Shown here: in pieces, positions 529-63,699 of the stretch
Layout of the letters: the number at the start of each line of letters is the position of its first letter
Position numbering within the stretch: the first letter of the stretch is position 1
Assembly (NCBI GenBank): GCA_036785375.1
Contig: JAWMAR010000021.1
Location: 3,100,001 to 3,164,000, forward strand
Source: Leucoraja ocellata
Lineage: Eukaryota
Length of the DNA: 64,000 nucleotides
Reading direction: 5' to 3'
Program-made: the position numbers and the translations under genes
Notes under the pieces: model-generated
Database searches by the model: none
What the model saw: the letters and a program-made list of their open reading frames with translations, nothing else
Told to the model about the DNA's origin: nothing

Positions 529-659
529 GCTAGAAGAAGGGTCTCGATGCGAAACGTTGCATATTTCCTTCGCTACATAGATACTGCCTCACCCTCTGAG
601 TTTCTCCAGCATTTTTGTCTACCTTCGATTTTCCAGCATCTGCAGTTCCTTCTTAAATA
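529..659 (+). mobile_element. Solo Penelope-terminus (pLTR-like) unit with a 5'-clipped hammerhead motif
   Basis: 13-bp TSD taagtagtacatt (516-528 and 660-672). Begins gaagaagggtctcgatgcgaaacgtt. Confidence 0.8.
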
Positions 660-679
660 TAAGTAGTACATTTACTATC

Positions 680-1530
680 TTCAAATCTGCTAGATTTTAT
701 CCAGAATATATTTTACTTAAGCGGCCACCGCTTTTGGATACCTTGGAATCTATAAAGGCCAGGAAATTTGTCTGGTATTAATTTCTACATATTTTTTTTT
801 TGGTGATATTTATTACCTTGGGCGTCATTAAACCCTTGGTTCCCTTCCATTTCTGCAACATTTGCTTTCTTGTGTGAAGACTGATATAAAATATTTGAAG
901 CTTAAGCTATTTCTATATTACCATAATTTCTCTTGCCACTTTCTTTATGATTCCCACATTTTCCTGCTCTCTTTTTGCACATTTTATATTTCTTGCCAAC
1001 TTGCAATCATATTCTATTTTGTCTCTCCGTCAGTATTTGGTCATTTGGTATATCTTGCTAAAACCTCTTCAATCGAGCTTCTATAGTTTATAAACTTGGT
1101 TGAATCATAATATTCTTGATATTGTAAGTTAGCTATGGACAGATCATTTCCTTTTGAAGTTATTATTTCTTAAACTTAGTTTATCCAATGACAGATATTT
1201 TAATCTAATTTCCTTTTCTAACTTAGTCAACACACTCCTCATATCTAGATAATTGGTCTCAGTTAAAATCAAGGCATTAATTTCTAACTGAGATGTCACT
1301 TTCTTGAACTCAATATTGCAATCATTCTCTGGAGGATCCCTTAATGAGATTGCTAATTATCTTTGTGATATAACACAAGATAAGATCTCAGACAACCGAT
1401 TCCTCAGTTTGTTTGATGACCTATATTTCCAGAAACACATCCTTAATATACTCAATAACCTGATCCCACAAAATATTTTTGCCAATTTGATTTATCAGTC
1501 GATAGGGCGAATAAACTCTATCTTTATTAT
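680..1530 (-). mobile_element. Highly decayed CR1 LINE fragment (also 1-240)
   Basis: Residual similarity by eye to the CR1 ORF2 sequence at 42679-44138. Confidence 0.45.
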
Positions 1531-1544
1531 TACAAGATGTTCTC

Positions 1545-2120
1545 TATTATATTTTTACACTATAGAAAGCTTACTGTCAGGTTGCATCACAGCTTGGTTT
1601 GGGATCAACTCTGCCCAAGACTGCAAGACATTGCAGAAAGTTGTGGACGCAGCCCAGTCCACCACACAGACCAGAATCCCTACCATTGACACCATCTACA
1701 CTTCATGCTGCCTCGTCATTCCTTCTTCTATCTGCACCTGTCTGGCTGAAGACACAAAAGTTTGAAAGTGTGCACCAGCAGACTCATAAACGGCTTCATA
1801 CCCTATGATCAGACATCTGAACAGTCCTTCCGTAAGCTAGGGTGATGTCCCATTCACCTCTACCCCATTGTGGATATTGAACTTTGTCTATGGAACTGAT
1901 GCACAACATTGCTGAGAATTATATTCACAAGTTATAGAAGTAGAATTAGGCCATTTCTCCCATCGCGTCTACTCCGCTATTCAATCATGACTGATCTTTG
2001 TCTCCTCTGTATCTTCCCCATTGCTCTACCTATTGTACGAGTTTGTCTTGATTGTAATTATGTACGGTATATCTGATCTGATTGGATAGCATGCAAAAAA
2101 AAACTTTTCATGTGATAATA
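1545..2120 (+). mobile_element. Rex1/Babar LINE 3' fragment, interrupted by a short CR1 tail
   Basis: ORF 1304-1765 ends YFYTIESLLSGCITAWFG...CKTLQKVVDAAQS, a Rex1 C-terminal motif. Confidence 0.75.
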
Positions 2121-3236
2121 ATAACTTACACCTGCTATTTCTTGTTTCTTTAATGGTATTGCAAGAATGGAGAATTATTTCAAATGCAGAGAATATCATG
2201 GAAAAGAACACATACTGTTTATTACCTTACAATGACAATTTGTAAATCTTTCTCCCAAGATCAAGATATCAATCTGCACCTTCTACTTTGGTACAGTATT
2301 TAAACTTTGGTTCTAAATTACAATTGGTAATTTATACAAAAGGGCAACTATTGTGTGAAAATTAAGAAAATCTGCAGCTGCTGGAAATCCAAAATCAATT
2401 AGTTTATTAGAGATCAGTCCTGATGAAGTGATTTCAACCTGAAACTGGTTCTCTTTCCACAGACGGTGCTGACCTCACATGTTTTTTTTACCATTTTCTA
2501 TTTTTATTGCAACCATTGTGTGGCGCTTTGATGAACCTTATGCAAAATTGGCCTATGCTACCTAACCTTGGTGAAGGGATGTTAATTTTATTATTGTATT
2601 GTATAAGTGCAATTTGAAACTGGATCTGTGACTGGTGTGCTGTACTATTTTAAGAACCTGCCAAATCTCGGTTGAATAGTTTTATCCAAACTATTTTGAA
2701 TAACGTCAAAGGACGATAAATATGAGTATGACCACCTGCTGGCAATATGTGGGGAATTCATTATTCATTCACCCGGGACAAGAAGGAGAATCAAGTTTGA
2801 ATACCTTTGATTAATGTGAATGCGACAGTCAGCTAGTAGATCAAAGATAACATTGAAAGATTAAATGTTATATCTTCCAATGAAATTCAAAACAGATCGT
2901 GGAGTCCAAAGGATTAAAAAATGTTGCATTTGCTTTGCTATTAATGCTCTTTCACTTTTTCAATGATGCTGGTAATTATGATTTGAGGAATATACATAAC
3001 ATGGAGTCAAACACATTTACTCTATTATTTTGAACATATGGGCGGAAGAAAGTTGTTGAATAATTTAGCGATTTTAAATTTCAACAAATATATCAATTAT
3101 ATTGAATTACCTGACGAAAACCCCAACACAATTTGTGGCCACAGTATTTGCTGGCAATCTTATTTGTTAAATAAATTATTTAATAAACAATTACATTCAA
3201 TGAAACCAGATTGCAGCTATCTTCTGCAAGACTCAC

Positions 3237-3268
3237 CTGCTTTGTCAATTTCTTTGTATTCAGCTTAC
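3237..3268 (-). CDS. MICU2: MICU2 32-nt coding exon (equivalent of human exon 3)
   Basis: ttttattctatttcatccctag|GTAAGCTGAATACAAAGAAATTGACAAAGCAG|gtgagt. In phase 1 it gives (G)KLNTKKLTKQ, versus human RKTSVKKLTKK. Length and phase fit the upstream exon. Confidence 0.88.
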
Positions 3269-3670
3269 CTAGGGATGAAATAGAATAAAATTACATTTAG
3301 ATTAGTGTGTAAATATGAACATGTTATATACTGTCAGATCACCTTCATAGCTGGCATGCTGAAAAGGAAACTAGATGAGGATATCCTTAAAAATAAATGT
3401 GCAAAGGTCATCACTATAGGCAATGGTTCCACAAACTGGATGTCAGTATAGGTAACCCTATTTAATGAGGGAGTAAGAGAACAGAAAATTACAAAACAGT
3501 TATCCTAACAGCGGTGTTAGGGAAAATTCCAGAGTATTATCTATTATCTCAGGATACTGAGATTCATGAAAAGGAAATCGTTATTGACAAATCTATATTT
3601 TTAGGTTGTAACTAGCAGAATAGAGAAGGAGGAAACTGTGCATGTGAAATATTTAGACTGTTACTCTTTT

Positions 3671-3840: not shown

Positions 3841-3844
3841 CATC

Positions 3845-8100: not shown

Positions 8101-9166
8101 AATAAAAAACACTAAATAAGAAACAAGAGACCCCTCCCCAGGCATACCTTGAGGACATTTCGAAGTGAGGCACTCAAAATTTAGAACCAAGGAACAGCAG
8201 ATGCTGGTTTACAAAAAGGGACACAAAGTGCTGGAGTAACTCAGCGTGTCAGGCAGCATTTCAATAGAACACCGATAGCAGGAGAGTCACACTTTGTGTC
8301 CTTTTCTTCCCACCCATCACTTACTTGCCAGGATTTATCCCAACCCCACTTCGGTTTTCCAGCTTTCTCCTCTTTACTCCAACCAGACTGAAGAAGGCTC
8401 AATCCAAAACAACATCTGCCCATTCCCTCACCAGATGTTGCCTGACGCTAGGATTTTCCAGCACGTTGTCTTTTGTTCAAGATTCCAGCATCTGCAGTCT
8501 CTTGTGTATCCATCCATCTTTGTTCATGTCCTTCTATCACTCTCCAATCGCACAATCATAAAATCACTTGCTTCGTTTTTCCAGCTGTCAGCGTTCTCCC
8601 AATCCCTTGTATATAAACTTCCTAAATGTCAAATGGTCTAGCCTTTAACCACCTGTTTTCCATGACATTTCAATGTCAACCATCTGCCCACACACTGAAT
8701 TCCACTTCTGAACCCCCAATCCCCATTCAACCCATTATTCCCCCATACCCTATCAGCTCCAGTCCAAGAGACACTGATTTGAAGGATTTAGTAGGAAATT
8801 GGTTACATCAATTATGGCTAGATCTAACAGAACCACTTAAAGCACTTTCTGTCAAAACACTGAGCCGTCAAAACCGGTTAGGCTTTCAAGATAATCTCAG
8901 AATAAAAATGATTTTATTGGACCATTCTCTCCTTTGTTGTTCACTCTATCCTCCAAAAGCAAACGTGAGAAGCTTGTGCACTTATTTGCCACTAAGATCA
9001 CCACGCTTCTCACTACCCGACCTGTTCTGATTGCCAATTGTCTTCCTATACTTGGCCCAGTGATTTTCCCAACTCCTTTTGTTGACCTCTTGTTCCGAAA
9101 GATCATTTTTCCTGCCCCTTTTTTCATCTTGTTCATTGTGTGGCATTTTATCAACAAGGAAGTGAA

Positions 9167-10027: not shown

Positions 10028-10509
10028 GTCAATATAACACGGGTAGGAAGGAATTGCAGATGCTGGTTTATACTGAAGATAGAAGCAAAATGCTGGAGTA
10101 ACTCAGCAGGTCAAGCAGCATCTCTGGATAAAAGGAATCGGGTTAGAACCGTTCTTCAAACCCTGTATACCACCATCACTTACCTAATGTATGGAAGTGT
10201 ATAAAATAACACAAACTCGAAAGTATAATACATATAGCAATACCTCGACTGGTGAGAAATACAACCTTGTTTAGTTCAGTATGAAGTTTAATTAATGGGT
10301 GTGAGAATCTTTTTCTCCTTGGTTTCCTCCTGCCTTTCCCAAATCCGCATGCTTCTGAGTTCACACCAGTTTGCTGATGATCTGTGTCCATAGGCATGTG
10401 GTAGGGATGCTTTTACCTTGTAGAGTCTCAGATACAGATTGCCGAGAACTTCATCACAGATTGTTCTTAGCAATGAGGAGCAATGCGGAAATTTTGTTTT
10501 TTTTTCCAC

Positions 10510-10740
10510 AAAGGGACACAAATTACCGGAGTAACTCAGCAGATCAGGCAGCATCCATGGAGAACATGGAAAGGTAACGTTTTAAGTCAAGACCATTCTC
10601 CAGACTGTCTGAAGAAGGGTGTCAATCCAAAACATCACCTATCCATGTACTCCATGGATGCTGCCTGACCTGCTGAGTTACTCCAGCACTTGGTGTCCTT
10701 TTGTGTATTAACCAGCCTCTATAGTTCTTTGTTTCTACTT
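10510..10740. repeat. Inverted pair of pLTR/hammerhead units
   Basis: gagtaactcagca..ggcagcatccatggag followed by its reverse complement. Confidence 0.75.
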
Positions 10741-17000: not shown

Positions 17001-17282
17001 GGTAGAGATAGGCTGAAGTCAAGTGGATGTCTAAAATAGTTACATTTAAAACCTTACCACATATGCATGAAAAGAGATGTAATGCTGAAAGTGTTTTAAG
17101 TAACGAAGCAGAGCAATGATTAATCAGGATTATTATGCAATAGTGAATCTAAATGCATTTATGTTTTAACTATGTAACTAAACGAAAAATTCAGAATATA
17201 CGGCATTAATTATTTCAATGATGGTAAACTAGTAGATCAAACAGCAGGAATGCACTCTAAAGCATTTTTAAAAACTGGATGG

Positions 17283-17455
17283 AGATACAGGGAACTGCAG
17301 ATGCTGGAATCTTACGCAGTACACAAACTGCTGGAGTAACTCAGCAGGTCCGGCAGCATCTGTGGATGAAAGAAAAGCCCTGACCCAGACGTCACCTATG
17401 CACGTTCTCCAGAGATGCTACCTGACCCGCTGAGTTACTCCAGCACTCTGTGTTC
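17283..17455. repeat. Inverted pair of pLTR/hammerhead units
   Basis: tgctggagtaactcagc...gctgagttactccagca arms. Confidence 0.75.
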
Positions 17456-18469
17456 TAAAAAAAAAAGATTAAGTATACTCCAAGGGCAAAGAAGGTACAT
17501 TGAGATGAGGAATCCCACAGATAAATATTGATCACAGCAAACATGAAATGAATAAAGAGGTACACAATAAATAACAATCATAGAAAAATGTGAATAAGTG
17601 TTATGGAAAAGAAGCTAAGTAAGAGATTGGGATAGGATACTATTTGTCGACAGCAAGGAACTTAAAAGTAAAAAGATACATTTAATGTATTATCAACAGT
17701 TTAGCATTTGAGACTGAAAACAACAAACAATTCCTTATCCCACCATTTTGAGTAGGAACATCTCATATCCATTGTGTTCGAGGGACATTGATCTCATGGA
17801 CCATTGAAGATTTGTGAACAGAGGAAAGAATATGATAGAAGCAGCAATTTTCAAAATAAGCTGTGATATGAAGATTTTTAACAGGTCAAATGGTAAAGGG
17901 AATAAACAAGTTGCTTTGTTTCTGTCAAGCAAGGTAATGCACTGATTCGGAGAGTCGAAGCATGTAATTTTGTATTATCACATGAAGATAAGTTGTACCA
18001 GTTGAACAACTTGAGACAAACCATAAATTGTTGCCTTCTTGACTTGCTATAAAACAAAGTATCTTAAGTAATCTGAATGTGACCTTGATTTACCAACTGT
18101 TTCTGAGTCCAAGAATGGCCGGATGGTTGTTTGGTGTGTAAATAATACAAGTATCAATGGGCATCAAGGGGCAATACTGTTTCACCTTGTTTTATGGCAT
18201 CACGGCGTGGAAAAAGGACAATGTGGGCATATGTAAAGGAACGAGAGAACAAGTTTTAAATTCTGAATGGAAGAGTACTTCTGCAAATTCAATGCTTTCA
18301 AGAAAAGTTAATATTTAATGCTTAAATATTAAGACTTATTTGAAACACAGCTGAACCTAAATCCAGATTTTGATGCTCTGAAAAAGGAGGAACTTCACTC
18401 TTAAGTAGCGACCATGTGAGTAGTACTGCAGCTTTCTCCTTATATATCAATTTAAATATGATTGATTGC

Positions 18470-20108: not shown

Positions 20109-20171
20109 AAATGTTATAACCATTTTTTAAATAGTGAAAGCATGAATAATAGAGGGCCATTTGTCTCATTC

Positions 20172-21437
20172 ATCAGCTTTACCACCAATTTTCATCCTGC
20201 ACTCAAATTTACTTGAACGGTCTTTGACAACTCCCTCCCCTTTCTTGATCTCACAGACTCAATCACAAGAAATAGACTAGTGACTGACGTCTATTACAAA
20301 CCCGCTGACTCCCACAACTATCTCGACTACACTTCTTCCCACCCTGCTTCCTGCAAAGACTCTACCTACAACCAATTCCTCTGTCTACGCCGTATCTGCG
20401 CCCAAGATGAGGTGTTCCGTACTAGAACATCCGAGATGTCCTCATCCCTTAGGGAACGGGGGTCCCCCTCCCATCATAATTGAGGCCCTCATCGTGTCTC
20501 CTCAGCTCCGCCCTTGCTCCCCCTCCTGGTCGCAACAGAAACAGTCCCCCTGATCCTTACCTTCCACACCATCAGCCGTTACGACACATAATCCTCTGGA
20601 ATTTCCGCCACCTCCAACGGGATACCACCACTAGCCACATTTTCCAATCTCCACCCCTTTCCACCTTCCGCAGAGACCATTCCCTCAGCAACTCCCTGGT
20701 TAACCCATCCCTTTCCACCCAAACCACCCCCTCCCCAGGTACCTTCCAGTGCAACCGCAGAAGTTGCAGCACCTGTCGCTATACCCCCTCTCTCGACTGT
20801 CCAGGGACCCTGACAGTCCTTTCAGGTTAGGCAGAGGTTCACTTGCACCTCCTCCAACCTCATCTACTGTATCCGTTGTTCAAGATGTGGACTCATATGC
20901 ATCGGCGAGACCAAACGCAGACTGGGCAATCGTTTCGCGGAACACCTTCGCTCAGCCCGCGTGAACCAACCTGATCTCCCGGTTGCTGGACACTTTAATT
21001 CTCTTTCCCATTCCTACACAGACCTTTCTGTCCTCGGTCTCCTCCGTTGTCAGTGAGGCTAAACACAAATTGGAGGAACAGCATCTCATATTTTGCTTGG
21101 GCAGCTCACAGCCCAGTGGTATGAATATTGATTTCTCACACTTCAGGTAGCCCCGGCATTCCCTCTCTCTCTATCCCTCCCCCATCCAGCTCGCGCTAGC
21201 TTCTCATTTTCACCCTCCAAACAGTTTACAATGGCCAGTTTCCTTTATCATCCTTACTTTTTGGCATATCTTTCATTCATTGTTTTTTGTATATCTTTCA
21301 TTCACCGTCCTTATCTCTAATTTCCCTTATCCCTAAACAGTCTGAAGAAGAGTCTCGACTCGAAACATCACCCATTCCTTCTCTCCAGAGATGCTGCCGG
21401 TCCCGCTGAGTTACTCCAGCTTTTTGTGTCTATCTTT
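20172..21437 (+). mobile_element. Penelope-like element 3' part (RT thumb, GIY-YIG endonuclease, terminal repeat with hammerhead motif)
   Basis: TDVYYKPADSHNYLDYTSSHPASCK. GIY-YIG region FTCTSSNLIYCIRCSRCGLICIGETKRRLGNRFAEH (~20838-20945). ctgaaga-agagtctcgactc-gaaac at 21342-21369. Confidence 0.9.
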
Positions 21438-21443
21438 TGTCTC

Positions 21444-24925: not shown

Positions 24926-25542
24926 CCGTTGTCAGTATATCAATAAGAATTTGATAGTTGGCAAGAAGAAGAAACTCCTCTTTGAATTGCCACTTTGATG
25001 TTTTATTCTGCCCTGGATACACATTCTTAAACATAAATAAACATACCGCTCAATCACAGGTACTGACCTCCCTACCATCAAAGGGATACATAGGAGGCAC
25101 TGTTTCAAAATGGCAGTCAGCATTCAAAGACCCACTCCTTACCATCAGGTAGATGAAAACCATGACCACCAAGTTCAAGAATAGCTTTTCCCCCAATAAG
25201 CATTAGGCTCTCGAACACTACACAACATGAACCTCAATGAGTATGAACTTTTAGAAACGCTCTTTGGTTGCATTATGGACATCCAATCATATACTAGTAT
25301 TAGTTATTAATTTATTGAATTTAAAAATCTTATCTGTCTGCATTTACGTACCTGCTAAGCTGTGCAGGTAAGAATTTCGTAGAAACAAGGAACGGCAGAT
25401 GCTGGTTTATACCATAGATAGACACAAAGTGCTGGAGTAGTGGGTCAGTCAGCATCTCTGGAAAAAATGGATGGATGACGTTTTGAGTCAGGACCCTTCA
25501 TCAGTCTTTATTTCCAGAGATGCTACCCGACCTGCTGAGTGA

Positions 25543-26190: not shown

Positions 26191-27279
26191 AAGTAAGAAT
26201 TTCATTGTTCCGTTGTTGGTATATTCTGTATGAGAATTAAACACTTTGTGAATCTATAATCTTTTTCCAGCCAGGTTTGCTCAAGAAACCATGGTACCTC
26301 TGCTGCTAACTGTTAGGGGAGTCCGAACCTTTGGAAGATACATCTACCGAAGTGCTCAAGGCAGCATTAAATTGAAAATTCTCATCAGTCTTTGTCTGCA
26401 TTTAATCAAGACAAAATGGCTTACAAGCAATATGTAGAAACAAGGAACAGCAGATGCCGGTTTACACAAAAGAACGAAAAGTGCTGGAGTAACTCAGTAG
26501 GTCAAGCAGCATCTCTGGAGAACATGGATAGGTGACGTTTCACTTTCTTCAGACTGATTGCAGGGGAGGAGAGGTTTGGGTGGGAAGGGATCGGTGAAGC
26601 AAGGAGTTGCGTAGGAAGCAGTCTCTGCAGAAGGCGGAAAGGGGGAAAGCAAGGATACTTCAAGGGTCAAGTTTTGCTTTCAGATTTGGATGCTTTCATC
26701 ATGACTAGCTCTTGTGCCTAATTGCAGCAATGCCTAAAAGCACAATGATTTAAAATCAAAACAATTTATGTAGGTAAACTATAATTGAAATGGTCCTGAC
26801 AGTATTTCAGAAAAGTGTAACTCATTCTGAATTATAGACTCAAAATTCTGGAGTAACTCAGTGGGTCTGGCAGCTTCTCTGGAGAAAAGGAATAGGTACC
26901 ATTTTGGGTGGAGACTTCTTCAACTGAGTCAGGGAGAGGGAAACTAGAGGTATGAACAGACTTCTAGACCTTCAGACCCAGCACCAATCAGCAGGAAAAT
27001 GTGGAGCCCACAATGGTCCATTGTTGGCTGTGGAAGACGTGATAATGGAGGGATATATAGGTACAAACAGTGGAACTAGCAGGGTGACTGCAGTGGTGGA
27101 GAGAGAGAGAATGCAAGGATTACTTAAAATTAGAGAAATTAATATTCACACCGCTCTGTACTAATTCTGAATGTTTTGTTGATATGTAATTGATGATCAG
27201 ATAGGCAACTACAAACTTGATGCAAAAGTACATGGGCATCTCTGGGCTCTGCAGAAAGGTGTTTAGCTTAAGATTGGAA

Positions 27280-28190: not shown

Positions 28191-28554
28191 CGTTCTAGAC
28201 CTTGCAGGAACAACTGAAAATGCCTGCTATTTCCAGTACATGGTCGTAAAGTCACGTAGTAAAGCAACAACTTTTTTGGCTCATTTGTCAATGCCAACCA
28301 TAACGTACATACCTATACCAAACCCATGTTCAGCATTTGGCCTGCAGCTTTCCTGGCCCTGCCGATTCAAGTGCTCATCTCTATACTTCTTAAATGCTGG
28401 AGGAGTCTCTACCTCCATTACTCCTTCAGACAGTGCGCTCCGTTTTCTAACTAACTTCTAAATTGATTATTCCTCAGTACCCCTCTCCGCTTCCAACCAC
28501 TTACCTTAAATTGAGGAAACAAAGATCTACAAATGCCGATTAATATCAAATATA

Positions 28555-28731
28555 GACACAAAGTGCTGGAATAACTGAGCTGGTCAGGCAGCATCTCTGA
28601 AGGAAATGGATAGGTGACATTTTGGGTCGGAACCCATCTTCAGACTGAAGAAGGGTCCCGACCCGAAATGTCACCTATCCATGTTCTCCAGAGATGCTGT
28701 TTGATCTGCTCAGTTACTTCAGCACTTTGTA
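28555..28731. repeat. Fold-back pair of pLTR/hammerhead units centred on cttcag-a-ctgaag
   Basis: ~85-bp inverted arms. Plus-strand core ctgaaga-agggtcccgaccc-gaaatgtc at 28645-28672. Confidence 0.8.
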
Positions 28732-31589
28732 TTTATGTATAGTATTACCTAATCGGATTGCATGGAATGCTAAACAAAGCTTTTCACTGCACCTCAGTAC
28801 ATGTGACAATAATAAACCTCAATCTAATAAGTAAATAATGAACTGTATGTTTACATGTGGGCTTGGCAACTGGCAACAGCCAACAACTTGAACACTCTAC
28901 CTACGTTATTGTTGGGCTTCTCAAGTTCTTGTCTAATTTACTGAACTGGATTAGAAATAGAAATATATAAAAACAGCTGGTAAGTAAGGAGTCAATTTTA
29001 AAATGTCCACTTTGATCTATATTTTATGGTTTCCTCTCCTATAGACAGTCTGATTTAACACACTTCTCATTATAGCATACTGGGTGTTTCCTAAAGACAG
29101 CTTCAAACAGAAGTACTAAGTACAATTTTAATGAAAAGGAACTGTATTACATGGTTGAGCATTAATTAGAATAGAGACAGTGAAATCTGCCAAGCATCTC
29201 ACCACTGAATTTGGGTACATGGTGATTATTTAAATCATTAAAATGTATTGCCTTCCTTCGGTTTCATTCTCTACATTATTAGGAGAAGGGAGAGTGAAGT
29301 TGAACCAAAAAAGAAATATCAAAAATTAATACCGAGAAAGAACTGAACTTAATGTTCCAATGAAATTGTCCTTTCCCATTGTGTTAGCAGATTTAAAAAA
29401 CTCCCAGGGTGTGTTAAGAAAAGCAGAGCCCAATTTATTTTCCATTCTTCATCTTCCTGAAAAGGTGGAGGTGCAATTGTGATATATTCTCAGAGTGGCT
29501 TCGGTATGAAATTGTACCCATGTTCCTAAGTCAGGACATTCTGTGACTTGGAAGGGAGACTGTGATGGTTCTCCTATAATACTGATTTAGCTCTTTGCGG
29601 TGGTAGAGAATATCGTACTGGAAGGTAGTGTTGGAATAAAGCTGGCACGAGTTTGCATTGCATCCTAGAGATATTGCATGCTGCAGCCAACGTATATTGG
29701 TAGAACAAATTGTTCCTGGAGTCGACAAACAAAGTGCAATTCAGGCATATTACTTTATGGAAATTTAAAAAAAAGACATTAGAAATCCGAAATAATAAGA
29801 AAAAAGAGGCAGAATTTTTCCCACCCATAGATGCTGCCTGATTTGGGGGCGAGCTTCTGTTATTACTTTGTGATGGATGGTGTCATTTACATTAGTTTTC
29901 TGATTGGAGCCTTTACTGGAATCCGGAAGAGGATAGGGAGGTTTTCAGTATTCATTGCAAGATATTTAAAATGGACGTTATTGAGTTCAATTGCCACTGC
30001 CGCATATTGCTTACTTCATAAATTCAGGTTATAGGAGCAGATGAGGCCATTCGACGCATCACATCTATTCCGCCATTCAATTATGGCTGATCTATCTTTC
30101 CTTCTCAACCCAATTCTCCTGCCTTCTCCCCTATAGTCCTATGCCTTTCGTCCTAAACTCTCCCACTAGTGGAAACATCCTCCAAACATCCACTCGATCC
30201 AGGCCTTTCACTATTCACTACTTAATGAAAGCAGCGGCTGTGGATCTCATGTTGAGATGCAAAACAGTGCAGAAGTGTATTGAGGAGGAGATACGTATCT
30301 TCCATGGAAAAAATCTAGTTTACTTTGGTTTAAATTTTTAGTTTTGTTTATTATCATGTGCACCGAGGTACAGTGAAAAGCTTTTGTTGTATGCGAACCA
30401 GTCAGCAGAAACCAATACATAATTATAATCGAGCCATTCACAGAGTACAGCATCGCATGACGAAGGGAATAACGTGAATAAAGTCCAATAAAGTCTGATC
30501 AAAGATAATCCAAGGGTCTCTAATGAGGTAGATAATAACTCAAGACTGCTCTTTAGTTGTTGGTAGGATGGTTCAGTTGCCTTTACTTAGTTTCTCAAAG
30601 CATACTTTTAGGAAATATTTGGACAGTAGAGCAAGTATGTTTGGACAGTTAAAAAATATAGTTAGGATATTTTTGTTCATTTTTTAGTTGAAATATTTTT
30701 CAAAATATTCACTTACATAAAAATCTGACAAGGAGTGTAGGCCCACTCATTTTCTATTTTTTTTCAACAATATACCGTAACTAAAAAATAAATAAATAAT
30801 ATCCTGATAAATATTTTCTGTCTAAACATATTTGTTTAGCTATTTCTTACAAGTATATTTTGAGATGCTTACACTGAGGATATGTAGCTCTTCCCCTAAA
30901 CCCGTGCACTTACACAGCTTCAAATCCCACACAAGACCTTCTTACGTGTCAAAATGAATGTAACCGGTACAACATCAATGATAAACATGGAGCTATTCCT
31001 GGAATATTGTAATAGTCTTCAAAGTAATCAAAACTAAGATGTAAAAAGAGTCAATTTATTTCAGGTCTTCTTCAGAGCCCAATATATATTTGGCATAACA
31101 CAGTGCTGGGGGATCGCAGTGGGTCATCTGTGGAGGGAATGAACACATGACGTTTCGGGTTGGGATCTTTCCTCAGACTGATTGGAACAGTGGGGGAGAA
31201 AGCTGGAAAAGAGAGGTGGGGGTGGAACAAAGTGTGGTGAGTGATAGGTGGATGGAGGTGGGATGGGGGGGGGGGAGGGGGGGGGAGGTGATTGACAGAT
31301 GGGGTAATTCATGTCAAGTTGACATAAGGAATTGATTCGGCTTTAATGTGTGTAAATATACATGTGTAAGCATCAGTCATTTAAGAATTTTAAAATTTTG
31401 ATTAAAAAATTCATTCATACCTACTCTTTATCCTGAAACTTCTAATGATATGCTTGAATTAAACTTTAACTTGTTTATATACTGCAAAGATTAATTAAAT
31501 TCCAAGTAATAATTACAACTTGAAAATATGAAATACTTATCTTGTCAGCCTTGGTTCAAAAGCTGTACTCATACTTCTGAGTGGGAAAA

Positions 31590-35350: not shown

Positions 35351-36015
35351 CTGAATGGAAATATTGCAGATTACCTCCATAAAGTATTTTGCGTGTCTTC
35401 ACCATACAATTAGCTTTATGGAGCTACAACATTCATTCTGTGGAGACAGGCCAATCCACTGCTATGTCATAAGTTTACAAATAAATGTGACGTGCGAGAT
35501 GTAGAATAAAAAAGTTGAAAAGGGCATCGATGAGACCACATCTGAAATACTATGTTCAGTATGCATCATCTTACTGAATGTAGAATGCAAGTATGTAGAC
35601 TTACTGGATTGATAGCTGGAATGGGTAGATAATGACTCTTGACTGAAACATTGGATCACAGTTTAAAGGATTGCATTCACAGAGTTTAGAAGATTTAGGG
35701 ACAACCTGATTAAAACCTGTTTACCAACAGCATGCTTATCAATATAAAAGGAGAAACAAAAGTGTTGGAGTAATTCAGCGGGTTCGGCGACATCTCTGAA
35801 GGACCTGGACAGGTGACATTTCAGGTTGAGGCTCTTCTTCAGACTTTGAAAGATTAAAAGTTGAATTGGGGGGGAAAACGGCATTTTGTGCATTTCGATG
35901 CAGCTGTAGTAGTCTGAAGAAGGGCCCTGACCCGAAACATCACTTGTCTTTATACTGCTTGGCCTGCTGTTACTCCAGCACGTTTGTCTTTTCCTTTGGA
36001 AAACCAGCATCTTTA

Positions 36016-37085
36016 GTGTTTAGTTTAGAGATCCAGCGCGGAAACAGGTCCTTCGGCCGACCGGGTCAGCGCCGACCAGCAATCCCCGCACATTAACACT
36101 ATACTCACCCACTAGTGACAATTTTTACATTTACCAAGCCAATTAACCGATTAGGAAAAGGGGAGATGCAACGAGTCCTGGGTGTCATGGTACACCAGTC
36201 ATTGAAAGTATACATGCAGGTGCAGCAGGCAGTAAAGAAAGCAAATGGTATGTTAGCATTCATAGCAAAAGGATTTGAGTATAGGAGCAGGGAGGTTCTA
36301 CTGCAGTTGTACAGCGTCTTGGGGAGACCACACCTGGAGTATTGCGTACCGTTTTGGTCTCCTAATCTGAGGAAGGACATTATTGCCATTGAGGGAGTAC
36401 AGAGAAGGTTCACCAGACTGATTCCTGGGATGTCAGGACTTTCATATGAAGAAAGACTGGATAGACTCGGCTTGTACTCGCTAGAATTTAGAAGATTGAG
36501 GGGGGATCTTATAGAAACTTACAAAATTCTTAAGGGGTTGGACAGGCTAGATGCAGGAAGATTGTTCCCGATGTTGGGGAAGTCCAGAACAAGGGGTCAC
36601 AGTTTAAGGGTAAGGGGGGAATCTTTTAGAACCGAGATGAGAAAAACATTTTTTACACAGAGAGTGGTGAATCTCTGGAATTCTCTGCCACATAAGGTAG
36701 TTGAGGCCAGTTCATTGGCTATATTTAAGAGGGAGTTAAATGTGGCTTTTGTGGCTAAAGGGATCAGGGGGGAAGGAGAGAAGGCAGGTACAGGATACCG
36801 AGTTGGATGATCAGTCATGATCATATTGAATGGCGGTGCAGGCTCGAAGGGCCGAATGGCCTACTCCTGCACCTATTTTCTATGGTTCTATGTTTCTAAC
36901 CTACAAATCTGTACGTCTTTGGAGTGTGGGTAGAAACCGAAGATCTTGGAGAAAACCCACGCAGGTCACGGGGAGAACGTACAAACTTCGTACAGACAGC
37001 ACCCATAGTCGGTATCGAACCCGGGTCTCCGGCGCTGCACTCACTGTAAGGCATCAACTCTACCGCTGCGCCACCGTGACTGCCC
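36016..37085 (-). mobile_element. HE1-like SINE split by a CR1 insertion
   Basis: SINE halves 36016-36148 and 36897-37085 rejoin at aattaacc|tacaaa. Confidence 0.85.
36149..36896 (+). mobile_element. CR1 LINE 3' end nested in the SINE
   Basis: Open 231-aa C-terminal frame and (ttctatg)n tail. taacc direct repeat at 36144-36148 and 36897-36901. Confidence 0.95.
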
Positions 37086-37965
37086 AAAAATCTGCAGTTC
37101 CTTATGTCTCAATGTTTAAGTAGAGTGAAGTGCCATGCAATGTGGATTGGGGTTCTCTCTCAGTAAGGAACAGCAGAATTTTACCTCTCAAGATACTCTT
37201 AAATCAGTGGGTCATTTTTCTAGACTCCCAGGTATCATTACATCCTTTTCAAAATAGACAAGACTAATCCACTATCTTGGTAAACTACATGGGAAACTTC
37301 ATTTTTCTCTCTTAAATCTTGTGTGCAAAATCTTCCATCCATGTCTGGCTTTCTCAAAATTATATTGGTCTCTAGTCAAATTTAAATCCCTGCCATTCAA
37401 TTCTGAGTCACACACTGAGAGGATCCTTATCACATTAAATTTTTTAAAAATCCTTTTATTTTACCATCATCGTTGGCAGCTGTATAACCCATTCTTGCCA
37501 AACTCTCTGATGCTGGCCTCTTCTGCATTTCCCATTCTTTCCTTCAACTTTGCCAGCTGCTTTCAGGTGTTGAGGCTCCATGCTTCAGTCATCCATCTTC
37601 CAGACAGAACAGTCTGCCAGTCCACTCCTGCTCAGTTCCAAAGGTCAGAGTTCAAAATACAATAGCCTTAAAGTGCTTAATGATTACCCAAGTGGTAAGT
37701 GACTCACCTCTTGATTCTCCAGGCCTTTCTGCTATTTACAAGGTACAATTGTGCAGCTCCTATGGCACAAAATGTTGAACGGCACGCAAGACAAAGCAGC
37801 CAGCTTGATTAGCAACGCCTTAAACATTCATTCTTTGCACTACATTGGCAGCACTTTCTAAACCCACGACTTTGATCACGTTGGAAGACAAGCAATACAG
37901 CTGCATGGAAAAAGGTGCTGGACCAGGTGCTGGAGTAACTCAGCGGATCAGGCAGCATGCATAGA

Positions 37966-38190
37966 GAACATAGATAGATGGCGTTTTGGGTCGGGACACT
38001 TTTTCAGACTGAACATAGATAGGTGACGTTTTATGCCAGGACTCTTCTTCAGACTAAACATGGGTAAATGACGTTTCGGGTCGGGACATCCCTTCAGAGT
38101 GAACATGGATAGGTAACATTTTGGATTAGGACACTTCTTCACACTAAACATAGACCGATGACATTTTGGGTTGGGATCCTTCTGCAGACT
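37966..38190 (-). repeat. 5 x 45-bp tandem array of hammerhead-core-derived units
   Basis: Units start at 37966, 38011, 38056, 38101 and 38146. Minus-strand consensus agtctgaagaag.gtccYgacccRaaacgtcacctatcYatgttY. Confidence 0.88.
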
Positions 38191-44138: not shown

Positions 44139-45654
44139 TCTCATATTTCACGGGCAGTTTACAACCCAGTGGTATGAATATTGATTTATCTAATTTCAAG
44201 TAACCCCTACATTCCCTCTCTCCCAATTCCTCCCCCACCCAAGTCACATCAGCTTCTCGTTCTCACCTATCAAACAGCTAATAATAGCCTGTTTCCTTTA
44301 TCAGTGTTACTTTTTTGCATATCTTTCATTCATTTGTTCTACTTCTCTCTTCATCACTGTCTATATCTCTAGTTTCCCTTTCCCCTGACTCTAGTCCACA
44401 AAGTGTCTCGACCCAAAACATCACCCATTCCTTCTTCCAGAGATGCTGCCTGTCCCGCTGAGTTACTCTAGCTTTTTGTGTCTATCTTCTTTAAATAAGA
44501 CAGAAAATGAGCATTACCCAGTTCACATACTTGAACCTAAGGACCCGAGGGACAATTTTTCTACATAGAAGGTGGTGTGTGTATGCAATTAGCTGCTGTA
44601 AGATATATCTGTGGGAGGTACAATAACATTTGAAGCACATTTGAACATATGCATGAAAAGGAAAGATTTAGAGAGATATGGGCCAAACGTGGGTAATTGG
44701 GATGAGTTTAGTGCAGGAATCTTGGCCAGCATGGATGAATTGTGCCGAAGGGCCTGTCTCCATGCTGTATTGCTCCATGGGTCCATATTGAAGAGATTAA
44801 GGAGAGGCCAGGCATTGTAAAGTGAACCATTGTGGTTTAAAGCTACACTGGAAACATGGAGCTAGAATTGATATCAGTCCATGGATAACGTCCCTGGTTA
44901 CATGCGATTCTGACGGCAGAAACGTGTCAACAGCAGCTGGTGCCATCTGTTGTTGTAAAGCTCTGCTTATTAATAATGTCTATTGCAAAGTAAATGGCAT
45001 CTTTTGAGGATTTGACAACTCCTAAAAAACACGACTGAAAAATTATTTGTTTGTTACTGAGCCATAACCTCAAGCTGGACAGCTTGCTCTAATTCCCCAG
45101 GTCTGAGCTGGCTTTCAAAAGCTTTGATTGTTTCTCACTGGCCTAGATCTTAGTGTTTTAAATGGAACCAATGACGTTTATTCACTTAGAAAGAAGCACA
45201 CTCAGGGTGTCCCCATACGTGCTGTCATATGCTGATGCCCCAGACTCCTGGGGATTGAGTATTTGCTATGATTTCTCTGTGCACACCATGAAAATTGTCT
45301 CTTTGATATTTGTGTCAAGTAAGATGTGGTGCAGGATACAAGACCCCAAATGTTTCGAAAGGGAATTGTAGTTTTCCAGGCCTTTCTGGGGCAGGTTCTC
45401 CTGAATTTTGGTTAAGCCAGCCCAAAGAATCTGTGGAGGACTACCGCAGTCTAGTGTCCTACGTTACAGGACATTAAGAGGCAGTGCCCGGTGGGGCCAC
45501 ACCTCAAACAAGGGTAATGATATCATCCCACGGGGCCACAAGAAAGGAAAGGGTGTTTTGTTTAAAAGCAAGTGCAAATACTACTGAGTATGACACTTTT
45601 GAATGAATAGACACTGCAAATGTATGAAGAGTTTTTGCATATATATATATATTT

Positions 45655-54146: not shown

Positions 54147-54274
54147 TTAAGAAAGAACTGCAGATGCTGGAAAAATCAAAGGTAGACAAAAATGCTGGAG
54201 AAACTCAGCAGGTGAGGCAGCATCTATGGAGTGAAGGAATAGGTGACGTTTCGGGTCGAGACCCTTCTTCTTCA
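54147..54274 (-). mobile_element. Solo pLTR/hammerhead unit
   Basis: 11-bp TSD gttattcttgt (54136-54146 and 54275-54285). 5' end tgaagaagaagggtctcgacccgaaacgtcacc. Confidence 0.85.
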
Positions 54275-55840: not shown

Positions 55841-56560
55841 TTTCTATTGAATGCCTGGACCAGATGATTTAATTCTTTACATCCGCAAGAAACGGAGATC
55901 CAGCAGCTGTTATGTTTCTGACTGTAAATAGTTTGCCGCTGATTTAAATTTCTTATTAATTGCCATTTCTGGGGGAAAACAGTTAAGCTCTTTAACAGAA
56001 AGAAATCAGGATTCTAATAAGAATTGCTGACCTAAAACACTGGCTGTCTCTACATCTGCTGCTTTACTTGCAGAATGCTTTTAGCACTGTTTTTAAAACA
56101 ACTTTTCTATTTTCTACAGCAGTGAAAGGATTGCAGGCTGCAGCAATAGGACTCTTCCAAGCACAAAATAGGGAAGGTTCAGCAAAGATTTCTCTGAAAC
56201 ACTAAACGGTCAAAATTGCAAAACGGACTGCTGTTATTTGGCAAAAACAATATCAGGAACATGGGAAATTTTACAGAGATGCCAGTTGGCTCAAGGGTTT
56301 TTTGTTATCTCAATAACATCTCCAATCACTGCACCGCAGTCCTCAATTCAGTTGTTTCTTGAACACATTTATATTGTGATTCCATGTTCTGTTTTGGTAA
56401 TTAATTCCATCTGAATTATTACTGTTGTGAAACAGTTCTGTTGAAATTGAATTCCAACTTTTCAATTACTAAACTATATCCCCTCATTTATGAATTGAGG
56501 GTGAACAATTTATAATATCTATTAGATTTCATAGTAATTGCTATGATATTTTGAATTTAC

Positions 56561-56717
56561 CATCCTTGGCTTCCATAACCACAGAGAACATAAAATCTCT
56601 CGGAGTCATATATAATTCCCCTTCGTATTCCATTGAGGCAAATTGCTTGAAACGTTGTTTGCGACTTCCGGCGAATCCATAAAGTTCTCTGGTTTCTTCT
56701 TTATGCGGGCTTGGGTC
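56561..56717 (-). CDS. MICU2: MICU2 internal coding exon (157 nt; equivalent of human exon 2)
   Basis: Minus strand reads tctttttcttcaag|GACCCA...AAGGATG|gtaaat. It translates as DPSPHKEETRELYGFAGSRKQRFKQFASMEYEGELYMTPRDFMFSVVMEAKD(G). This matches recalled human MICU2 RKQRFMQFSSLEHEGEYYMTPRDFLFSVM better than MICU3 (FASIECEGQLFMTPYDF). Phase 0 to phase 1. Confidence 0.93.
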
Positions 56718-56821
56718 CTTGAAGAAAAAGATTTTGCATTAATATTAAAGAAATCATGGGATCCAAGTTAAGCTTAATGAAAAAATGCAATGTTATCGAG
56801 CAACATAAATTGATCAAAAAA

Positions 56822-56990: not shown

Positions 56991-58367
56991 AAGAGCGATC
57001 AAATGATTTGGATAAGAAGGAACTGCAGATGCTGGTTTATACAGAGGATAGAGACACAACACTGGAGTAACTCAACGGGTCCGGCAGCATCTCTGGAGAA
57101 AAGGAATAGGAGATGTTACGGGTTGGGACCCTTCCTCAGACATTCCTCCATCCCGACATTATCATCAAACCCGCCAACAAGAGAGGTGCCGTTGTAGTCT
57201 GGCGAGCTGACCTCTACTGGGCTGAACTCTCAGACACCACTCTGTACTTACCCCAGGACCATGACCCCAGAGATGAGCACGGCCAAATTAAATGATCTGA
57301 GGAAGAATTCCGACCCTGAATCATCACCTATTCCTTTTCTCCAGAGATGCTGCTTGACTCGCTGAGAATCAAGTGATTTGTGGTGTTGATTCCTCTTTCA
57401 AACAATCACAGTATACCAAATATATTTGAGCTGCATAAGTGGAGGGCACTGGAGGAGCAGTAATGGAGAGAGTTAAGAGGAAATTAGAATACAAAAGTGC
57501 AGGGAGAGGGGTGACAAGGTGATGTGGTGGAAACACAAGGAACTGTTGGTGGTGGAATCTTGCATAGAACACAGTGCTGGAATAACTCTGCGGATCAGGC
57601 ATCTTCTTTGGAGAAACCAACTGAGCTATGGCTTTCAATCATGCAGCATAGACTAGGTTTCGTGTCCAGGAGAGACTGGTACTTCACTGCATCTCCCTCT
57701 CTTCCATCTCTCTGGTGCTCCTGTTGATTCCACAATCCAAACTCATCATGGTTCTCAAGACAGCAAGTTGGAGGATCAACCGTAACAGACAGACAGCATG
57801 GGGTCTGACGTCTGAGGCAAAATGCTCAGTCATGTATCAGGTGAAAGAAAATCAAATTCAATTTACCCATCCCCCCCAATTAGGACTTACAATTAACCTA
57901 TTAATTTGTAAATGCCTTAACTTCATGCATTAAAAACAATTATCTGGCAGCTCTAGTTTTCATACTCCTTATCATCAATGGGAGCTAGGTCAAAAGTGAT
58001 CCATAAAAGGCCTTCCTAGGCATGCTCATGTGATGGAGAATAAACTTTATACCTGGTTCTTGGATGGTTAAAGAGGTTGATATGGGTCCCGTAGACTTTG
58101 GGTGTGTCCGACAGGACGTGGGTTGGTGATGTATGAGGTAGGACAGTCGTTATATCTATGTGTCTCTATGCTCTGCAGTCAGGGACTGATGGTTATCGGT
58201 GTGTAGAAAAGAACTGCAGATGACGGTTTATACCGAAGACAGCCACAAAGTGCTGGAGTAACTTAGCGGGTCAGGCAGCATCTCTGGAGGAAAAGGATGG
58301 GTGATGTTTTAGGGTCAGGGTTCTTGGTGCCCTTTTTCCTGATTAGTCCGAAATTGTGCAGAAATAC

Positions 58368-58940: not shown

Positions 58941-58941
58941 C

Positions 58942-60410: not shown

Positions 60411-60805
60411 GGTTCCAGTTTACGTTATTTCTCCTCGCATAGATGTTAGATCCTTTCTGAGGATGGCATAAATAGGGTAGACAGTCAGAGCTGGGTTCAA
60501 ATGACATGGGTTCAAATGACAACAAATAAATTGTAATTGTAATAATTGTAATTTATTGATCTTTCAAGTTTGGAGTATCAGCAAATATTCACGCTGGGGA
60601 AAATGAGAGTTTAACTTAATGCAAATCAAATGAAAGGTTTCACATGCATGGGAGAAATTGCCAACTGTTGTTTATATAAGTTGATATATTTTTAGCACTA
60701 ACTTCACAATTTGTTCTTGGACATATGTCACAACATCTTTACAGTTGTAGAATTTCAACCATCATTTAATCAACGTGCGAGGTAAATATACACTGGTTAA
60801 ACATT

Positions 60806-61220
60806 GTAGATACAGCGCAGAAACAGGCGTTTCTGTCCACCGAGTCCACGCTGACCAGCAATCCCCATACACCAGCACTGCCCTACACACTAGGGACAAT
60901 TTACAGAAGCCAATCAACCTACAAATCTGTACATCTTTGGAGTGTAGGAGAAAGCCAGAGCATACGGAGAAAACCCACGCAGTCACAAGGAGGGGTGGAA
61001 GATTGCAACCTTCCCTGTTTCGACTAATGCAATCAAATCGACGTGCACAAACGGGAGATCAAATAGAACAAGTTGTCCAACAACTTTAGGCTGTGCACGC
61101 CACAGGAAAGAAGAAGTCACAAGGAAAACGTACAAATTCCATACGGACAGCACCAGTAGTCAGGTTCGAATCTGGGTCTCTGGCGCGGTGAGGCAACAAC
61201 TCTACCGCTGCACCACTGCA
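60806..61220 (-). mobile_element. HE1-like SINE with a nested 123-bp insertion
   Basis: SINE halves flank 60992-61114, which has an 11-bp TSD agtcacaagga. Confidence 0.82.
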
Positions 61221-61849
61221 TCATCCCCGTTACATATGTTCCAAGCTGACAAATTCCCTATATACTGTACAAAAGTACTTAAAGTAGATCTACACTTTCA
61301 TGCCAGCATATTCTGATCAGTGAAGATATAAAAACCTTGTAATTTATAACTGCTCCCAAGCTGAATATATTGGGTCACTCTCTACATACTAATGTGCATC
61401 GATAAATAATGTGGTAATCTGACTGCATTTCCTCTCCTGGCTAGATTTGATGGGATAAATAGAAGGAAGGAGTTCCCATTAGCAGATGGTTTAAAGACTG
61501 GGGCCACAGGGTTGAAATTTTAGGGAAATGTTAAAAGGCTTTTTTTGCGACACACTGATCGTAGTTTTGATCTGGAAAATCACCACCAACCAGAGTTTTG
61601 GAAGAGAATTCCCAACTCCCAGGCACTTGGGAGAGAAACATCGGCAAGGTAATGGGGAATAAAGATAAATAAGCCTGACCAGCTGAGTTTCTCCAACACT
61701 TTGTTGTTTTCTGCTCAAGATCCCAGCATCTGCAGCTTCTGATGGTTTGTTTTACTAGGAACTAGTCAGATGATTGAAACTGAAATGGTTGCAAAAACCT
61801 AAAACCTATGTCTAATATATATAATATAATATAATATATAATATAACAT

Positions 61850-62170
61850 AAAATACTGGAGAAACTCAGCGGGTGAGGCAGCATCTATGGAGAGAAGGAA
61901 TTGGCGACATTTCAGGTCAAGACCCTTCTTCAGACTAATGTCGGGGGTGGGGGAGGGGGGAGGGTATGACAAAGAAAGAATGTAGGCGGAGACTAGTGGG
62001 AGAACTGGGAATGGGGGGGGGGGGGGGGGGGGGGGGGATGAAGAGAGAGCAAGGGCTACCTGAAGTTAGAGAAGCCAATGTTCATTCCGCTGGGATGCAA
62101 ACTACCCAAGCGAAAAATGAAGTGATGTTCCTCCAATTTGCGCTGGGCCTCACTCTGACAATGGAAGATA
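61850..62170 (-). mobile_element. Penelope 3' end (GIY-YIG C-terminus and terminal repeat)
   Basis: Reverse complement of the 21050-21430 region, including agtctgaagaagggtcttgacctgaaatgtc. Confidence 0.8.
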
Positions 62171-62944
62171 GTGGAAACTCGAATGGCTGCAAAAACCTCA
62201 AATCAATGTGTCACAACTTCAATTTTTACCTCAAATTATGTCCCTCTTGAGCCATGAAGAGGGAAGATTTTCACATGGTTAGAGAATAGGCTGGTGTCAG
62301 CAGGGAGACCAGCCCAAAAACTGCCACCGATGCAGAAATGTGGTTTTGTTGTTTTTGAGTTGGCATCCATGGCTTATCCTTCGGGGAGAAAATTGGATTG
62401 AAGTAATGTGCTATGTGACAGAACTAGGATGTGGGTTTATCACCACAATTACCGCAGAGATCTCTTCTTGGTAACTTGTAGATGCTAGGCCCTTTTTTAC
62501 CAGTAGAGGGTTGAACACACAGAGCCAGGCATCCTTGCGCATTTTCTTGTTTGATAGACCAGCAAGGGTCTAATCATTGGCCTCCAATTAACAGTTTTAA
62601 CCAGTGAAATGATGCAAACAAAGTGAAAAAAAATTAAGTATTTTATTGAGCTAAGCTCAAAGTAACCTAGGAAACACACAAGATATGGCTTGGCACTAGC
62701 TTCAAAACATTTTTGAAAACTGACTCACTAAGCTTTGTTTATTGGATCTCAATGCTCCTGGCCAAAATTGATTTTGAGACAGCAGAAACTCGAATGGCTG
62801 CAAAAACCTCAAATCAATGTGTCACAACTTCACAATGCACTTAACAGTATACAACCCAAAATATTTACTTAATTTCTGACTGCTAATAGTTTGCACGCTT
62901 ATCATTTAAATTAATATCAGTTTTGCAAAAAGTCAACTTGTCGA

Positions 62945-63174
62945 AGTCCATAAGCTCTCGGAGCAGAATTCAGCCCATCAAATCTACTCCACCATTCAAT
63001 CATGGCTGATCTATCTTCCCCTCTCAATCCCTCTCCTGCCTTCTCCCTGTAATCCCTGATACCGATACTAATGGAGAATCTATTAATCTCAAAATCCTTT
63101 CAACTTTAAAAATATTAATTCTATAATTCTATATTGCCCCTCCAATAATATAAATAAAAAAATAGATAAATAGA

Positions 63175-63205
<31 letters not shown>

Positions 63206-63400
63206 ATAGGCTCCACAGAATTCTGTGGCAATGAATTCCACAGATTCACTATCCTCTGAGTAAAGAAATTCCTCCTCATCTATTTTCTAAAGGTCGTCCT
63301 TTTATTCAGGGGCTATGGCCTCTAGCCCTAAACTCTCCCACTAGTAGAAACATCCTCTCCACATCCATTCTATCCAGGCCTTTCATTATTCAATGTATTT
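62945..63400 (-). mobile_element. CR1 3' fragment containing an (AAAT)n microsatellite
   Basis: ccattcaatcatggctgatc UTR motif and ctgtggcaatgaattccacagattcac. Confidence 0.75.
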
Positions 63401-63660
63401 TCCAATTGTGTCAAGCTGGAAAGAGTGCAGAGAAGATTTACAGTCTGAAAAGACTGGACCCTTTCCCACCCCAACCAACACTTCACACCCACTCACAGCC
63501 TGACCTCAGTCTGCAAAGACTGGGCACATCTACACCCACTCTTCCCCATTCACCACTTCACACATACTTAGAGCACGACTCCAGTCTGAAAAGATTGTAG
63601 GTATACAAAAATGCTGGAGAAAGTCAGCGGGTGCAGCAGCATCTATGGAGCGAAGGAAAT

Positions 63661-63695
63661 GGGTGACGTTTCGGGCCGAAACCCTTCTTCAGACT
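63661..63695 (-). ncRNA. Minimal type-I hammerhead ribozyme motif (Penelope-type), best-preserved copy
   Basis: AGU-CUGAAGA-A-GGGU(UUCG)GCCC-GAAA-CG-UC^ACC. All core nucleotides are present, with a 4-bp stem II and a tetraloop. Part of pLTR unit 63598-63695. Confidence 0.65.
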
Positions 63696-63699
63696 AATT

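Follow-up and report, generated by a model that had tools for sequence, protein, structure and literature searches.

Short hammerhead-bearing insertions in Leucoraja ocellata as probable run-off copies of a Penelope-like element's 5' leader

A stretch of 64,000 nucleotides from the genome of Leucoraja ocellata (contig JAWMAR010000021.1, positions 3,100,001 to 3,164,000; hereafter the window) holds many copies of a unit of about 130 bp that opens on a hammerhead ribozyme core and also terminates remnants of Penelope-like elements (PLEs). This locus raises the question of whether such copies form a family of their own, moving as hammerhead-released RNA as the initial annotation proposed, or whether they are left behind by the PLE itself. 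Our analysis of the window and of a random genome sample (140 arbitrarily placed 10-kb pieces, 1.4 Mb in total) indicates that they are very likely by-products of the autonomous element. They are retroposed copies of the terminal unit of a Neptune-type PLE, most of them probably short complementary DNAs (cDNAs) that ran off the RNA start on the 5' leader, and not an independent family. Positions within the unit are counted from the C of CUGA (position 0), and the predicted hammerhead cut lies between +27 and +28.

One unit at both ends of a Penelope-like element

The body of the source element carries a single frame of 900 aa in which a reverse transcriptase (RT) domain (PF00078, E 1.7e-6) is followed by a weakly matching GIY-YIG endonuclease (EN) domain (PF01541, E 0.007), both under the Pfam gathering score. 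A DKG motif at residue 306 of P0001 and the cysteine motif CNRKRCNTC at 767, in the RT-EN linker, point to a PLE of the Neptune/Nematis type, the linker motif together with the vertebrate host suggesting Neptune. Many long young copies are 94–99% alike, and the 150 scored matches to the N-terminus include many in which a frame of about 1,233 codons runs without a stop, as well as several exact tandems of 3,946 bp; the young element has likely been active recently. Its long open reading frame (ORF) contains a proline-rich repeat region of variable copy number (L136:549-1700; G000:C300:1139587-1147868; C8:5608895-5613230). In full-length copies, which lie in partial tandems, the unit with its tail stands directly ahead of the ORF's ATG (about +164), so that one and the same unit closes insertions on the 3' side and serves the ORF as its 5' leader. 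Intact autonomous copies bear it at both ends. Partial tandems (the pseudo-long terminal repeat, pLTR), inverted 5' copies, an optional tail of 30–40 bp and target-site duplications (TSDs) are all present. One full-length copy (L150:1-460) begins at +1 and is fused to a fragment of its own RT region in inverted orientation.

Within the window, the core pattern with up to three mismatches gave 13 matches (0 in 100 shuffles), and profile searches recovered 33 segments with two profiles and 37 with four (0 on the reversed sequence). The 37 segments, 23 on the minus and 14 on the plus strand, correspond to about 27 insertions, including seven head-to-head pairs and one four-unit tandem, in agreement with the 20–30 recurrences of the initial annotation; copies are 95–130 bases long. 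Four remnants reaching the end of the Penelope-like ORF terminate in the unit (at 21342, 26922, 44395/44401 and 61933), with the ORF end 123–197 nt upstream. Three of these had been recognised from the start, and the one at 26922 is new. The longest (about 20150-21150) retains recognisable RT-thumb and GIY-YIG residues interrupted by stops and frameshifts. Overall, about 42% of the window matches repeats present in the random sample.

The random sample contains 688 segments, which make up 63,752 bases (4.6%) at a density that is alike on large and smaller contigs (5.1 vs 4.8 per 10 kb); no more than 35 of them extend to the end of the ORF. Scaling to 3.44 Gb gives about 1.7 million segments, a figure good to an order of magnitude, as the assembly seems to contain duplicated stretches. 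The same insertion was found twice on one contig in opposite orientation (pairs on G000:C220, C501, C10 and C180), which suggests large inverted duplications or assembly duplicates, and genome-wide counts are therefore inflated. Raw RNA reads (poly(A) and single-cell) from four runs of a related organism cover the unit 2,000–7,500-fold and the 5' part of the ORF less than 60-fold, a gap expected from passive transcription of dispersed copies.

Ends of the copies and state of the hammerhead

Among the 607 random copies that include the 3' body of the unit, 333 reach +4, and 235 of these stop between −8 and +4, a span of 13 nt at the core's front edge. The stop rate in this interval is 0.090 per nt, compared with 0.0015–0.030 inside the unit and 0.010–0.024 upstream. 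The steepest single-base drop lies between A(−3) and C(−4), where the retained fraction falls from 0.52 to 0.25 (n = 117). The sequence at the edge, TCAGTC, which we take to be initiator-like, is kept in all subfamilies while the untranslated region (UTR) upstream diverges. TSDs of 9–19 bp confirm retroposition; they flank 49 of 156 non-inverted short copies, drawn from the random sample and fetched loci with duplicates removed, vs 10 of 466 controls with swapped flanks. Of the 49 TSD-anchored 5' ends, 20 fall at −1 to +3, often with bases in common with the element start. Positions −3 and −2 are also among the commonest loose-end places listed for bulk RNA reads, although these are reads of dispersed copies and so reflect DNA ends.

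That the copies were simply truncated at random on the 5' side, and that the peak arose because alignments break off in a C/T-rich UTR, is very improbable. The UTR is indeed of low complexity, and the library of 69 cleaned references by which copies were classed as short or long (1 of 200 random positions passed) represents each of the two oldest subfamilies by only four references. Furthermore, de novo insertions of the Chlamys PLE in Chlamydomonas have a similarly small median length (128 bp) and are ascribed to 5' truncation in the available text of PMC9977147, although that clade lacks a hammerhead and has a true non-autonomous partner family. However, the peak persists in the youngest and best-referenced subfamily, in which 39 of 60 copies stop at the edge (0.078 per nt vs 0.002–0.008 upstream), and in TSD-anchored copies, which need no UTR alignment.

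The claim that solo copies have non-random 5' ends starting at the core is thus upheld, but the ends are not at the cleavage site. They lie about 28 nt upstream of it, and only 6 of the 607 (about 1%) fall at +27/+28, a bin with one of the lowest rates, which rules out cleavage-defined ends. A small excess at +20 stems from a 66-bp tandem family (see below), and one at +31 to +33 has its origin in another tandem and in old matches of low strength.

A minimal type I hammerhead layout (CUGAnGA-n, helix II, GAAA, a palindromic helix III stub, UH), with an extra base after position 9, is formed by the majority base in all four subfamilies; stem I has only 2 bp and helix II 4 bp. To this extent the hammerhead motif recognised in the initial annotation is real. 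Individual cores are mostly broken: intact ones were found in 44 of 321 random copies, 25 of them in the youngest subfamily, and in 1 of 26 window copies by a strict test of core and stem II (63692). Neither of the clean solo copies has an intact core, the one at 529 carrying an inserted A and a broken stem II and the one at 54274 an extra GAA. The four stem II variants listed initially are present as written. Their supposed covariation, whose absence had been named beforehand as a refuting outcome, did not appear: compensatory changes numbered 6, 1, 3 and 1, where columns varying independently would give 5.5, 1.6, 1.7 and 2.3 (n = 282). The compensatory pair in copy 21342, which has lost the C-G of stem III, is a chance double hit, and the youngest subfamily is marked only by a one-sided change from U-A to U-G. 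We infer that inserted cores decay without visible selection. In the youngest subfamily (L136:413, subfamily 1), GUU replaces GUC at the predicted cut site and U-G wobbles occur in stems I and II. Comparison with Rfam, which is uninformative for minimal motifs, yielded nothing that reached the gathering score in the window, and for a young copy no hammerhead family came up even at E ≤ 10; the minimum-energy folds of the young-unit monomer and dimer differ from the hammerhead fold. Luense et al. are said to have described dimer cleavage in 2017.

These results bear on the model of an independent non-autonomous family, resembling retrozymes or short interspersed nuclear elements (SINEs), that is released by the hammerhead and mobilised in trans, a model we regard as largely refuted and very unlikely. 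It would fit the small share of segments reaching the ORF end, the clean TSDs and the non-random 5' ends. A separate 66-bp tandem derivative does exist in the genome, and pLTR-derived retrozymes have been described in vertebrates, one chondrichthyan among them (available text of bioRxiv 10.64898/2026.07.22.740005). In addition to the scarcity of ends at the cut site, the lack of excess stem II covariation and the few intact cores, however, no lineage of short copies is apparent. Short and long copies occur in all four subfamilies, no column separates them at p < 0.01 in the two subfamilies tested, and the share of long copies among nearest neighbours is close to expectation (14/40 vs 0.30; 7/90 vs 0.13), in a test based on 88 bp with limited power, by which small solo lineages could be missed. 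As far as the available text of the bioRxiv report and of PMC7229834 goes, animal non-LTR retrozymes share a PLE pLTR origin, a type I hammerhead and dispersed monomers with the present copies; unlike those tandem units with complete hammerheads, the copies here are monomers or head-to-head pairs, their cores are mostly broken, and their boundaries do not fall at the cut site.

RNA processing could also produce a fixed front edge, if the pyrimidine tract and CAG before the core acted as a 3' splice site and copies were made from spliced or splice-site-cleaved RNA. An acceptor-like sequence is present in all subfamilies, D. virilis offers a precedent in which the intron ends at helix I, and at one duplicated locus (L020-L025) the 20 nt between TSD and core resemble the ORF end. 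This explanation nevertheless has little chance of being correct: no junction between ORF end and core occurs in 1.4 Mb of random DNA, the upstream 60-mers of 206 edge-stopping copies match the element body on the same strand in 2 cases, in line with the control rate (13/1,030), and there is no drop at the border between AG and T. At L020 and L022-L025, the 20 nt in question could just as well derive from the UTR of one of the old subfamilies.

The edge stop is independent of which of two 3' sites (see below) was used (104/156 and 102/141). The stop is thus fixed by sequence and not by length, and a fixed-length tether is ruled out. Full-length copies behave differently. We followed the first 40 new full-length N-terminus matches, taking the most upstream member of listed tandems, together with 7 earlier ones; after removal of 3 duplicates, 9 of the 44 terminate within the upstream unit and 2 at its front edge, whereas 33 extend beyond it. 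Edge stops therefore number 2 of 35 full-length young copies vs 39 of 60 terminal copies of the youngest subfamily (Fisher p 5e-9), or 2 of 12 full-length copies when only defined junctions are considered (p 0.003). Since 33 of 35 full-length copies pass, the edge is no barrier to an RT coming from far downstream and matters only for cDNAs begun on the same unit, which leaves two readings, the end of the template or a boundary set by protein. An intrinsic pause at the TCAG-n-CTGA palindrome or in the C-rich UTR is disfavoured by the same result; the palindrome may shape inverted junctions.

If the boundary were set by protein, the RNA would extend upstream, and a protein on the primed unit, or a protein-assisted hammerhead fold, would halt synthesis at a fixed position as in telomerase, while unbound upstream units would be copied through. 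Such a boundary accounts equally well for pass-through and for the independence from the 3' start site, and about 30% of at-risk terminal copies do extend beyond −8. According to the available text of the respective papers, PLE RTs are sister to telomerase RT (PMC8557442) and the hammerhead of PAc, the Poseidon element of Anolis carolinensis, is protein-assisted (PMC11167929). Yet synthesis has traversed the entire hammerhead before it stops, and the sequence at the stop offers a helix of only 2 bp. There are also hints of an extra G, and the edge matches the presumably initiator-like TCAGTC that all subfamilies conserve below a diverging UTR. We consider a protein-set boundary unlikely.

Head-to-head pairs and run-off on the 5' leader

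The 3' ends of copies fall into two zones, at about +84 to +106 and at +118 or more (the profile ends near +131), and TSD-anchored 3' ends cluster at +88 to +96 and +116 to +133. The two end sites (about +95 and +129) lie about 34 nt apart, and the two zones are the known optional tail. Of 148 head-to-head pairs in the random sample, 97 could be classed, and 73 of these have one arm per zone vs 48 expected (p 2e-7). An outer TSD surrounds 33 of 96 pairs compared with 3 of 285 controls, which indicates that many pairs are single events; none of the seven window pairs has one by a strict test. From the mixed pairs we infer one RT start site per target strand. A tail on one side only is already in print (available text of PMC8557442). 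Arkhipova et al., in the available text of PMC3846280, attribute head-to-head junctions to self-priming on an antisense template, whereas the use of one site per arm here suggests priming from both target strands.

Run-off on the leader would combine these observations as follows. Transcription from the pLTR promoter would begin at about the A of TCAGTC (−3), and the RT-endonuclease would cut both target strands about 9–19 nt apart. Priming would take place on the leader at two internal sites, each cut strand taking a different one if both serve, and the cDNA would run off the 5' end of an RNA left uncut by the hammerhead after about 100 or 130 nt. Its end would then be joined to the target by short microhomology, giving a solo copy, or to the other cDNA, giving a head-to-head pair, whereas long copies would need read-through RNA from tandem arrays. 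We prefer the end of the template over a protein boundary because the edge coincides with what we take to be an initiator-like sequence, kept while the upstream UTR diverges, and because PLE starts lie in the pLTR. A further reason is that the RNA-binding motif of PAc needs sequence downstream of the start sites for activity (available text of Frangieh et al. 2024, PMC11167929), and here only the leader copy has such RNA. According to the same text, two adjacent internal RT start sites bracket and define the tail in PAc, both strands are cut and extended, uncut RNA serves as template with hammerhead cleavage dispensable, and the hammerhead lies at the pLTR-ORF junction. Whether the present element primes mainly on its own mRNA's 5' leader, with one start site per cut strand, and leaves in most events a 'strong-stop'-like stub ending at the RNA cap, is a more specific claim on which we are evenly divided.

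Several points weigh against run-off. The initiator consensus behind the proposed start is our assumption. The four RNA runs of the related organism contain no sharp read start, although they were not built to show starts or cuts. An extra G copied from the cap is weakly indicated: among random non-inverted copies, it accounts for 7 of the 14 bases other than C at −4 (p 0.07), none of them TSD-verified. The 5' ends scatter across about 10 nt, and some of the TSD-anchored copies start as far out as −6 or −7, ahead of the start proposed here. If capped RNA were a main template of long cDNAs, edge stops should exceed 2 of 35; moreover, 23 of those 35 full-length copies extend beyond the sequence retrieved and may belong to arrays instead of being insertions of their own. 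Finally, the transcription start of D. virilis Penelope and of Chlamys is located more upstream and is followed by an intron, and the start sites of PAc do not differ between strands in vitro (available text of PMC11167929).

Copies in the window, tandem derivatives and related elements

The individual features of the window are given in Table 1; the TSDs of the two solo copies proved to be as clean as first described.

Table 1 Coordinates of unit copies, Penelope-like remnants and host gene context in the window
Coordinates	Strand	Feature	Details
529..659	+	Short (solo) copy with tail, damaged core	13-bp TSD at 516-528 and 660-672
54147..54274	-	Short (solo) copy with tail, extra GAA in core	11-bp TSD
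20150..21441 (start approximate)	+	5'-truncated Penelope-like remnant	Broken RT-thumb/GIY-YIG coding sequence, 192-nt 3' UTR, unit 21342-21441 without tail
44150..44492 (start approximate)	+	Remnant: ORF end, 3' UTR, unit with damaged core, without tail	
61847..62165 (outer end approximate)	-	Remnant: ORF end, 123-nt 3' UTR, unit 61933-61847	
26833..27150 (outer end approximate)	-	Fourth remnant reaching ORF end	Missing from the initial annotation
63589..63702	-	Youngest-subfamily copy, sole intact core and stem II in the window	88/95 identical to full-length young copy
10501..10737		Head-to-head pair, tailed and tailless arm	Joined at front edge of core
28518..28739		Head-to-head pair, tailed and tailless arm	Joined at TCAG-n-CTGA quasi-palindrome
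17282..17456		Head-to-head pair	Tail arm truncated at about +42
25382..25541		Head-to-head pair	Second arm short
35732..36021		Head-to-head pair, old and diverged	About 70 nt separating arms
8182..8509		Head-to-head pair	About 80 nt separating arms; possibly separate insertions (two)
57012..57403		Two opposite copies	Separated by 157 nt; possibly two insertions
37920..38185	-	Old tandem, three to four 44-45-bp core repeats (about −4 to +41) ahead of unit	Cores decayed
56544..56738	-	Reading frame with MICU2 exon (E 9.5e-12)	Host gene context, outside element

Direct repeats of the 5' part, like those of the old tandem in Table 1, precede 6 of 240 edge-stopping copies and could reflect RT re-priming after run-off or later local duplication. 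A distinct head-to-tail repeat of 66 bp spans +20 to +85 with one fixed non-native junction; it is absent from the window and has 24,824 exact genome-wide matches on both strands (0 for the backwards control). It occurs in dispersed arrays of few units (e.g., L066:340-690 and 1370-1700, L029:1-390 and L219:8840-8960), and those examined share the first 3' site as their end but differ at the 5' side, one of them beginning with the native stem II. Because the CUGAnGA half is missing on its own strand, this repeat does not qualify as a hammerhead retrozyme. Its numbers nevertheless show that copying of a rearranged unit took place thousands of times; the repeat is young, and its source may be a non-autonomous master or else an autonomous element whose pLTR has expanded. 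A joint like its junction is present in RNA reads of the related organism. A second tandem derivative joins about +88 to +31, with three junctions at one locus, L050 (G000:C4:10000001-10010000).

The family itself is ordinary, minimal hammerheads in dispersed truncated PLE termini having been in print since 2014 (PMC4209133). In the available text of that paper, Cervera and De la Pena describe metazoan PLE pLTRs with minimal type I hammerheads, including fish Neptune, Poseidon and Xena elements, and mostly single dispersed motifs, ascribed to truncated PLEs, alongside opposite-strand pairs. The present motif shares with theirs the absence of loop 3, the palindromic 15.2–16.2 and the unpaired base after position 9 (between 9 and 10.1). 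In contrast, helix II (4 bp) and helix I (2 bp) are shorter here than in the typical motif, although D. virilis also has a 2-bp helix I. Copy number is far above the 4,000–9,000 motifs per genome given there, which were counted differently, covariation within the family is lacking, and the available text does not describe 5' ends. Compared with insertions of endonuclease-bearing (EN+) PLEs of the Neptune clade (available text of Craig et al. 2021, PMC8557442, and Arkhipova et al. 2013, PMC3846280), the element shares the single ORF with RT followed by GIY-YIG, DKG and the linker cysteine motif, partial tandems, an inverted 5' copy, a 30–40-bp tail at one end, TSDs, microhomology at 5' junctions and palindromes at inverted junctions. 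Here, however, nearly all insertions are the bare unit, with 5' ends piled up at one position. PAc belongs to a different clade and its ORF begins inside the hammerhead, compared with about 164 nt downstream in the present element; in the available text of PMC11167929 its start sites show no strand difference and genomic 5' ends are not discussed. A literature search that left subscription papers, Repbase and bioRxiv supplements outside found neither a run-off or transcription-start explanation of short PLE copies nor the motif in sharks or skates.

The value added by this genome lies in mechanism and scale, given that the completion of integration, the occurrence of tandems and the role of the hammerhead are open questions for PLEs. 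It offers young copies that are still intact, together with junctions in very large numbers, from which two sharp predictions follow, an RNA start at −3 and one RT start site per target strand. For annotation, 4–5% of the genome could be mislabelled as SINEs or miniature inverted-repeat transposable elements. If run-off on the leader is true, the approximately 1.7 million segments would be a fossil map of the RNA start; it would explain why tandem copies are needed to move a full-length unit, and the hammerhead would sit uncut at the very front of the template.

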